Shown: positions 11,076-12,175, counted from the first letter of the stretch. The stretch: DNA of 64,000 bases from a virus (IMGVR_UViG_3300045971_000354:32001-96000), one strand, 5' to 3'. Notes: generated by a model from the letters alone, not told the origin. Made by a program: numbers and translations.

Positions 11076-11960
11076 ATGTCAAATTCGCCGTTACAGCCCA
11101 TGAAAAAAGTTAATCCGTTAACAAGTTTCATGCGCCAACCCAAAATTTACATTACATTGCCCAGCCAAGGAATGTATTGGGCACCCGGAAGTATACAAGT
11201 TCCGGAAACAGGCGAACTTCCTGTATTTTCAATGACTGCAAAAGACGAACTTGCGTTTAAAACTCCCGATGCATTACTTAACGGTCAAGCAGTAGTTGAT
11301 GTTATTCAAAGTTGTATTCCCGCTATCAAGGATGCATGGCGTACTCCTAATATTGATCTCGACTTAATCTTAATTGCTATTAGAATTGCAACGTACGGTG
11401 AAAAGATGGAAATTACTCACAAAGTACCAAATACTGAAGAAGAAGTAGAGCACGAGATCGATCTTCGAACACTTGTTGATCAATTGTCAATAAGCAAATG
11501 GGAAGAAGCTGTAGATATTAGCGACGATCTAACGTGTTTTATTCGACCTCTAACTTATAAGCATATGACTGCTACCGGGTTAAAAACGTTTGAAACCCAA
11601 AGATTAATGCAAGCTGTGAACGACGAAACGTTAACTGATGAAAGAAAATTAGAAATTTTCAATCAAAGCTTTAACAAAATGACTGACATTACTATCGATT
11701 TAATGGCAGACACTATTTCAAGTATTCAAACACCTGATGCAATTGTTAAAGATCCTGTGTTCATTAAGGAATTTTTGCAGAATGCCGATAAAGAAGTTTT
11801 CCAGAAACTTCAAAATCATTTAAACAAACTGAAATTAGTTACTGGATTACAACCGTTAAAAATGAAGTCAACTCCCGAGCTAATTGAAGCAGGGGCTCCT
11901 GAAACTTACGAGTTACCAATTAAAATTGACAACGCTGATTTTTTCGGACAAGGCTCTTAA
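11076..11960 (+). CDS. Baseplate hub / tail assembly protein (T4 gp26-like)
   Basis: RQPKIYITLPS, MTAKDE and DLDLILIAIRIATYGE motifs. Ends ...DFFGQGS. GGAG RBS at 11063 favours ATG 11076. Confidence 0.75.
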   Translation: MSNSPLQPMKKVNPLTSFMRQPKIYITLPSQGMYWAPGSIQVPETGELPVFSMTAKDELAFKTPDALLNGQAVVDVIQSCIPAIKDAWRTPNIDLDLILIAIRIATYGEKMEITHKVPNTEEEVEHEIDLRTLVDQLSISKWEEAVDISDDLTCFIRPLTYKHMTATGLKTFETQRLMQAVNDETLTDERKLEIFNQSFNKMTDITIDLMADTISSIQTPDAIVKDPVFIKEFLQNADKEVFQKLQNHLNKLKLVTGLQPLKMKSTPELIEAGAPETYELPIKIDNADFFGQGS

Positions 11961-12000
11961 CACTATCTAATCAAGAGATAGAAAAGCTCGTTAAGAGCCT
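11939..12000 (+). promoter_or_regulatory. Programmed -1 ribosomal frameshift signal
   Basis: Slippery heptamer T TTT TTC (11939-11945), 5-nt spacer, perfect 11-bp stem AGGCTCTTAAC/GTTAAGAGCCT with an inner CTATCT/AGATAG stem. Confidence 0.8.
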
Positions 12001-12175
12001 CGAAGACGAGTCTAAATCATTTAAAAAGAATTTGTTTAAACTTTGCTGGTATATGCGAGGAAGTTTAACTTTCGAAGAAGCATTTCAGCTTGACCACGAA
12101 AGTCGAGAAATTATATATCAAATAGTTGAAGAGAACCTTGCAACTACAAAAGAAAGCGGATTACCTTTCTTTTAA
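11939..12175 (+). CDS. -1 frame extension of the gp26-like protein (gp51-like domain; ...LFKLCWYMRGSLTFEEAF...GLPFF)
   Basis: 78 open codons beginning exactly at T TTT TTC, directly after an in-frame TGA. No RBS-supported start. The stop shares TTAA with the convergent gene. Confidence 0.75.
   Translation, partial: FFRTRLLTLSNQEIEKLVKSLEDESKSFKKNLFKLCWYMRGSLTFEEAFQLDHESREIIYQIVEENLATTKESGLPFF

Follow-up and report, generated by a model that had tools for sequence, protein, structure and literature searches.

Here, we describe a putatively recoded gene in a stretch of viral DNA of 64,000 nucleotides (nt; IMGVR_UViG_3300045971_000354:32001-96000), the whole of which is referred to below as the window. 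The source record is a 143-kb fragment, ~40% complete, of an uncultured giant T4-related freshwater phage. The gene resembles those for the baseplate hub chaperones of phage T4 and, with a probability of roughly 0.87, makes two proteins of 294 and 366 amino acids (aa) by a -1 slip of the ribosome on a TTTTTTC heptamer located before an RNA hairpin. A programmed -1 frameshift had been put forward in an earlier reading of the window from its sequence only (hereafter the sequence-only reading), and this interpretation is now strongly supported because comparison among relatives, covariation, coding tests and natural in-frame fusions all point to it. We infer the slip itself and its efficiency from the signal, its conservation, the covariation of the hairpin, the coding status of the extension, the fusions and the rule that links the signal to gene number.

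A slippery site ahead of an overlapping reading frame

The 0-frame coding sequence (CDS) ends with GAT TTT TTC GGA CAA GGC TCT TAA, the stop being located at 11958-60, and thereby contains a slippery heptamer in the X_XXY_YYZ phase (Table 1). Following the TGA directly before this site, the -1 frame is free of stops for 78 codons (11939-12172) and ends with a TAA at 12173-75. A slip on the heptamer would join 11076-11945 to 11945-12172, resulting in a long transframe product of 290 + 76 = 366 aa with the junction peptide NADFF/RTRLLTLSNQ (the slash marks the junction). The first start codon in the -1 open reading frame (ORF) is a TTG at codon 31, which lacks a Shine-Dalgarno sequence, and the TTAA at 12172-12175 forms the overlapping stops of the extension and of a convergent gene. 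The hairpin predicted 5 nt past the heptamer has an outer stem with 11/11 perfect base pairs (bp), the 5′ arm of which includes the 0-frame stop; its fold energy is -19 kcal/mol (z = -3.3 relative to shuffles). The sequence-only reading had described precisely this arrangement, i.e. a canonical in-frame site, the TGA and the 78 open codons on its two sides, the absence of a start backed by a ribosome-binding site, the TTAA shared with the convergent gene, an 11-bp stem enclosing a 6-bp stem, and products of 294 and 366 aa. Reanalysis reproduced all of it, including the coordinates of the stems and, by translation, both product sizes.

TTTTTTC on its own occurs no more often than by chance, with 26 copies in the window versus 31.1 expected, so comparison among relatives decides the case. 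Beyond chance are the position of this heptamer, its conservation and its partner ORF, which are kept in 118/118 distinct relatives.

Table 1. Features of the putatively recoded gene and its direct neighbours in the window (positions counted from the first letter of the window)
Feature	Position	Strand	Basis
Shine-Dalgarno sequence GGAG	11063..11066	+	Read in the sequence, 9 nt ahead of ATG 11076
0-frame CDS, 294 aa, short product, PF12322	11076..11960	+	Translation and Pfam
TGA shutting the -1 frame directly before the slip site	11936..11938	+	Sequence
Slippery heptamer T_TTT_TTC, phase X_XXY_YYZ	11939..11945	+	Sequence
5-nt spacer	11946..11950	+	Sequence and fold
-1-frame extension (76 codons past the slip, then TAA)	11945..12175	+	Translation
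Stimulatory hairpin (predicted)	11951..12000	+	Outer 11-bp stem 11951-61/11990-12000, inner 6-bp stem 11963-68/11976-81
Tape-measure-like protein, 933 aa, divergent neighbour	8199..11000	-	'tail length tape measure protein': phrog_4200 E 8e-10, phrog_1272 E 3e-9
221-aa Ala/Gln/Pro-rich gene, convergent; context, outside the device	12172..12837	-	Sequence and family scans

The heptamer is conserved in giant phages and cyanophages

Two scans of IMG/VR supplied relatives, which were complemented with nine cultured giant phages (Atu_ph07, Phosso, RaK2, XaC1, Serratia BF, Ettore, PBECO4, Vibrio 2.275.O and fEgEco12). An in-frame TTTTTTC is present at every locus that reaches the end of the gene, with identity ranging from 71% down to 34%, and also in all nine cultured phages. 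A census of the giant-phage genes found the heptamer in the same phase, together with a -1 ORF matching the extension profile, in 118/118 distinct genes, with the 0-frame stop following 1 to 11 codons later. The sequence-only reading had named homologs without the slippery site as evidence that would speak against a frameshift. The discordant rows of the census consist of three contigs that carry the heptamer and end too early, and two short paralogs without it that are followed by the next gene. Among cyanophages, S-PM2, Syn9 and 80/80 relatives from IMG/VR have TTTTTTC one codon ahead of the stop and a -1 ORF of 61-68 codons. The conservation check suggested by the sequence-only reading was thus borne out in both groups.

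Both Phe codons of the heptamer and the third base of the preceding codon are invariant despite the availability of synonymous options. T4 gp26 ends in KEFFELL (GAG TTC TTT GAG for EFFE) and has no extension. As it encodes the homologous FF as TTC TTT, conservation of the two phenylalanines alone cannot account for the heptamer. The 0-frame stop lies exactly one codon past the heptamer in 73/118 giant-phage genes and in 80/80 cyanophage genes, so that it falls in the spacer or in the 5′ arm of the hairpin; such a nearby stop may itself aid shifting.

A covarying hairpin follows the slippery site

In most of the 118 giant-phage genes a helix begins 3-8 nt past the heptamer. The longest contiguous helix averages 9.2 bp, versus 5.6 bp in dinucleotide shuffles and 6.0 bp when the 5′ arm is taken 12-17 nt downstream, and it reaches at least 8 bp at the expected place in 75/118 genes. 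The position of the 5′ arm is fixed across clades, while its 3′ partner varies by clade. In the clade of the window the partner lies ~40 nt off, with 90.9% of cells paired and two compensatory pairs (18-56% paired with the partner slid). In the sister clades it lies ~56 nt off, with 92.5% paired and five compensatory pairs, amounting to 32 such cells (32-60% with the partner slid). Stem covariation in homologs, a further check listed in the sequence-only reading, is therefore seen in both sets of clades. A scan of 11850-12250 against Rfam found no family.

The hairpin bears on an alternative explanation, in which RNA polymerase would add one U at the run of six T's, so that some mRNAs encode the long form directly. 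The required homopolymer is present, and the resulting protein would be identical, meaning that protein comparisons cannot separate the two routes. However, efficient transcriptional slippage in bacteria usually takes place on runs of 9 or more A/T, and six T's fall below this length. Furthermore, polymerase slippage has no need for a conserved hairpin with compensatory changes 3-8 nt past the run, whereas a ribosomal -1 shift does need one. We therefore consider transcriptional slippage very unlikely.

The extension is under coding constraint from its first codons

The extension spans 77-79 codons across the giant-phage relatives, and its protein is well conserved, with the motifs FFRxRLLxL...CWYMRGG...EA..L...DRE..I..N.ETTK.xGLPFF. 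No start codon is conserved within it: the codon after FFR encodes I, V, M, L, A, T, S, Q, K or E, and the sole conserved ATG is the internal Met of WYMRG. A coding test was applied to 29 ungapped sequences, covering the stretch from the 0-frame stop to this Met. In the -1 frame, codon-position entropy follows the order 3>1>2, and stops number 0, versus 76 and 112 in the other two frames. The ratio of non-synonymous to synonymous differences (pN/pS) is 0.54, versus ~1. Since no start is conserved and coding constraint is found upstream, translation must enter the -1 frame at the overlap, as a -1 shift does.

The two parts of the 366-aa transframe protein were folded separately, as unchanged translations. 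AlphaFold2 models the extension as four helices with a predicted local distance difference test score (pLDDT) of 88. A Foldseek search of BFVD with this model returned nothing significant, and a Pfam scan of the extension gave nothing at an expect value (E) of 1 or below. The only PHROGs match was to phrog_26290 (function unassigned there; E 3e-4), in 1/35 members.

These data also bear on the possibility that no fusion is made and that the downstream ORF is instead an independent small gene, whose translation would begin either at its own start or, by termination-reinitiation, where it overlaps the upstream stop. Database records lend this idea some support, as the ORF has its own CDS in those of S-PM2 ('gp51', 57 aa), PBECO4, Serratia BF, XaC1, Vibrio 2.275.O and Phosso ('hypothetical protein'), and some lineages have an ATG at FFR-M or overlapping the stop as TAATG. 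Yet in the window the first 30 codons of the extension contain no start, the TTG at codon 31 has no Shine-Dalgarno sequence, and the -1 frame of those same 30 codons shows coding constraint. The start position is not conserved among relatives, while TTTTTTC is invariant, and the annotated starts vary from record to record and trim conserved residues. In addition, the domain is covalently fused at the exact junction in in-frame homologs and in T4 gp51. A separate gene is therefore an unlikely explanation, and a ribosomal frameshift remains the preferred one.

In-frame fusions accompany a second gene copy

A search of 1.84 billion representative proteins with the extension profile gave 594 matches. 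About 20 of the best 150 of these are proteins of 319-351 aa in which a gp26-like body continues in frame into a C-terminal extension domain. At the matching IMG/VR loci, the fusion junctions (e.g. CAA TTT AGA or ACT TTC CGA) encode a single F and contain no T run, which identifies them as genuine in-frame genes rather than sequencing errors. This also addresses the suspicion that the frame layout in the window is an artefact or a sign of decay, i.e. that an indel in the T run or a recent break in the gene conceals a true ORF of 366 aa. Homopolymers are indeed error-prone, and in-frame long forms do exist in other phages, but these real in-frame forms have only the single F at their junctions. 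Moreover, the same frame layout recurs in 118 + 80 independent assemblies, as well as in finished genomes of cultured phages. An error of this kind is barely conceivable.

At every locus with an in-frame fusion, a short paralog that has neither extension nor heptamer lies in tandem with it. A single family gene was found at 71 loci, and at two further loci there are two paralogs, the second of which retains the frameshift. At these two loci (L125:6030-7716 and L106:7127-8810), the first member of the tandem PF12322 pair has lost the signal and the second has TTTTTTC with a -1 extension; the pairs look like an intermediate between the one-gene and the two-gene state. Counted over whole records, T4 has two PF12322 copies, compared with one in each of S-PM2, Syn9 and RaK2; a 100%-complete genome of the frameshift type has one and a 90%-complete genome of the in-frame type has two. 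Together, the in-frame fusions and the copy numbers constitute strong indirect evidence, drawn from gene content, that the short and the long product are both functional and required.

Relation to T4 gp26 and gp51

The 294-aa protein matches Pfam family PF12322 (T4_baseplate) with E 4.8e-12 and 46.5 bits over residues 61-253. This score exceeds the curated cut-off of 24.5 and bears out the gp26-like identity proposed in the sequence-only reading. It is the single PF12322 match in its own genome record, and it also matches phrog_150 ('baseplate hub') with E 2.9e-14. Its AlphaFold2 model (pLDDT 87.8) has 59 matches at E<=1e-3 in BFVD, a search covering predicted structures only, where it resembles 'baseplate hub assembly protein, bacteriophage T4-like' with E 3e-21 and template modelling (TM) scores of 0.85-0.87. 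No solved structure of the PF12322 family was found by a profile search of PDB sequences or by Foldseek against PDB: the N-terminal domain (N-domain) and extension profiles returned coiled-coil noise only, and the 294-aa model gave nothing at E<=1e-3. A VIA wide search with the same model found no specific fold, only helical-hairpin matches with Z<=8.1. The DNA of the region had no match among 50,697 phage records. Aligned with hhalign, the N-domain profile reaches a probability of just 0.8% with T4 gp26 as a single sequence, though Pfam unites both.

In T4, gp26 (208 aa; PF12322 E 8.8e-64) and gp51 (249 aa; E 3.9e-52) are paralogs (BLASTP 2e-6), with gp51 having ~48 additional C-terminal residues. 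The window protein belongs to the same Pfam family and shares with this pair the combination of a short form and a long form bearing a helical C-terminal tail. As in gp51, the tail begins at a homologous F-(K/R)-x-L-L motif, and in both phages the genes adjoin hub and tape-measure genes. The two systems differ in that T4 has two divergently transcribed paralogs and no recoding, whereas the window has one gene with a slip signal. With 294 aa, the window protein also exceeds the T4 proteins in length; its C-terminus is without the CxxC motif, and its tail measures 76 aa compared with ~48 aa in gp51. A T4 gp26-gp25 fusion was considered as a candidate, with gene 25 lying in the -1 frame of gene 26, and was rejected: there is no slippery site, and a -1 stop lies a few codons before the start of gene 25. 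The start of gene 25 overlaps the stop of T4 gene 26 (L077:7803-8429) as TAATG, and T4 also has an annotated internal-start product, 26'.

Cyanophages provide a link between the two arrangements. Their gp26 and 'gp51' genes (e.g. S-PM2p207/p208, with 'gp51' proteins of 57-70 aa) form the same device as the window gene. They differ in being annotated as two genes, in having a shorter extension that is much nearer to the T4 gp51 tail, and in N-domains that group apart, in one clade with the T4 proteins. The cyanophage extension aligns with residues 200-246 of T4 gp51 (BLASTP E 5e-5; hhalign probability 95.9%, E 5e-9). The giant-phage extension aligns with the cyanophage extension profile at E 2.2e-4 and a probability of 45%. 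The extension profile of the window's clade reaches E 0.055 and a probability of 1% against the gp51 family, with 4/300 column shuffles scoring as well; a narrow extension profile reaches 3% against T4 gp51 as a single sequence and 0.3% against gp26. The three alignments (cyanophage/gp51, cyanophage/giant-phage and giant-phage/gp51) are mutually collinear. For the 'gp51-like domain' of the sequence-only reading, the architecture and the homology of the cyanophage tail hold up, while the direct match of the window's own tail to gp51 is weak. For the window's clade, then, the gp51-like architecture is secure, and homology of the tail sequence is probable rather than proven.

A maximum-likelihood tree of the N-domains (46 sequences; midpoint root for drawing only) places the T4-type gp26 and gp51 proteins as sister clades (support 93/87), which together are sister to the frameshifting cyanophages. 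The giant-phage clade contains at least three separate duplications, and the sister group of the window's clade consists of short duplicates that do not frameshift. The simplest reading of this tree, which is not properly rooted, is that the frameshifting single gene represents the older state and was repeatedly replaced by gene pairs. Going further, the chances seem evenly balanced that the PF12322 frameshift is ancestral to a T4-related supergroup (cyanophages, giant phages of the RaK2/PA5oct/Atu_ph07 type and many uncultured marine and freshwater phages), with the essential T4 genes 26 and 51 being a duplicated, subfunctionalised recoded gene and the short/long pair being the functional counterpart of lambda G/GT for tape measure and hub.

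Proposed mechanism and comparison with lambda G/GT

In the proposed mechanism, the hairpin 5 nt downstream would pause ribosomes with TTT and TTC (11940-11945) in their P and A sites. In a fraction of them, both tRNA-Phe would then pair anew with TTT TTT, one base further back. Unshifted ribosomes would add four more residues and stop, resulting in the 294-aa protein, while shifted ribosomes would read CGG ACA AGG and onwards, thereby adding a 76-residue domain predicted to have four helices and producing the 366-aa protein. Both forms would be needed; lineages that have lost the signal have two genes in its place, one short and one with an in-frame tail, as with T4 26 and 51. By analogy with characterized systems, the pair may act as a non-virion chaperone, in which the shared N-domain holds a hub or tape-measure component and the tail recruits a second partner.

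A review of the T4 tail lists gp26 and gp51 as hub assembly chaperones and describes gp51 as missing from the particles (Leiman et al. 2010, PMC3004832). In lambda, gpG and gpGT exemplify a conserved -1 frameshift in the tail assembly chaperone genes of long-tailed phages (Levin 1993; Xu, Hendrix & Duda 2004; both as cited in PMC5009743). The window gene resembles lambda G/GT in having a predicted X_XXY_YYZ -1 shift towards the 3′ end of a small gene for tail assembly that adjoins the tape-measure gene. It would also yield two products with a common N-terminus and perhaps share their non-virion status, which in T4 applies at least to the long one (PMC3004832). By contrast, no relation to G/T-type chaperones was detected in sequence or fold, the window gene points away from the tape-measure gene instead of preceding it on the same strand, and its 0-frame protein is ~2x the length of gpG. 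Since the gene belongs by sequence to no G/T family and is divergently oriented, the claim is limited to the pair working like G/GT, at roughly even odds. The virion proteome table of phage CBB lists the tape-measure-like CBB_251 and no CBB_250; the latter is gp26-like only by unverified RefSeq numbering.

Several points weigh against the interpretation given here. With respect to function, Pfam, Foldseek against PDB and the VIA wide search gave no sequence or fold link to lambda-type tail assembly chaperones. No tail assembly chaperone family was matched at E<=1 in Pfam or PHROGs, where the N-domain matched PF12322 and 'baseplate hub' alone and the extension no named family. The role as a tape-measure or hub chaperone is suggested by analogy with lambda G/GT and T4 genetics. 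With respect to the signal, 43/118 genes have no contiguous 8-bp helix at the expected place, and the clades for both covariation counts were picked after folding, so that the structure is somewhat favoured; the family-wide helix count is free of that bias. In some lineages, an ATG located two or four codons past the slip site overlaps the 0-frame stop (ATGA or TAATG), and termination-reinitiation could contribute there; the window has no such ATG. Finally, as the record of the window is ~40% complete, a second paralog may be located elsewhere in the genome.

Genomic neighbourhood

Beyond the divergent tape-measure-like gene lie genes for the portal, the prohead protease and the major head protein. 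The order of portal, tape-measure and divergent gp26-like genes is common to RaK2, CBB, PBECO4 and fEgEco12. The 933-aa tape-measure-like protein has a run of eight glycines (AAGGGGGGGGVAG) near its N-terminus, encoded at window positions 10850-10900 (-). On the other side, the 221-aa protein of the convergent gene has a central coiled-coil-like stretch and faint matches only (head scaffolding, E 0.04). Elsewhere in the window, a homing-endonuclease-like gene (1229-1972, -; phrog_655 E 5e-47) is located between endolysin-like and major head protein genes, and a single ORF of 4427 aa at 28025-41308 (+) lies among virion-structural-like genes.

Annotation status and implications

Ribosomal slippage is marked in 0/11 of the annotated records inspected. 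RaK2 and Ettore carry no annotation for the extension, Atu_ph07 has it in truncated form, and the other records give it as a small CDS of its own. Examples include S-PM2 (L186:2196-2369), Atu_ph07 (L074:3609-3731), PBECO4 (L081:2031-2240) and RaK2 (L076:4362-4555), where the extension is either missing or entered as a 57-aa 'gp51' or a 'hypothetical protein' of 40 or 69 aa, and never with a ribosomal-slippage join. In the literature outside subscription journals, we found no report of a frameshift in genes of the gp26/gp51 family. Two giant-phage genome papers do not report one, the PRFect paper mentions neither baseplate nor hub, and the available part of the Atkins 2016 recoding review does not mention gp26, gp51 or the baseplate. 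The novelty lies not in the mechanism, which is classical, but in the gene family, in the breadth of its distribution and in the link to T4 genes 26 and 51.

Recognizing this device would put right how a core structural gene is annotated across hundreds of phage genomes, including cultured reference genomes of giant phages and cyanophages, and it provides a testable hypothesis for T4 gp26 and gp51. The replacement of one recoded gene by two, several times independently, would amount to a natural experiment, which argues that both isoforms are required. The proposed frameshift would also extend the rule of frameshifted tail-assembly chaperone pairs to T4-related myoviruses, via an unrelated protein family. 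If its ancestral origin is true, T4-like phages would be no exception to this rule, and gp51 would be the 'GT' of T4.

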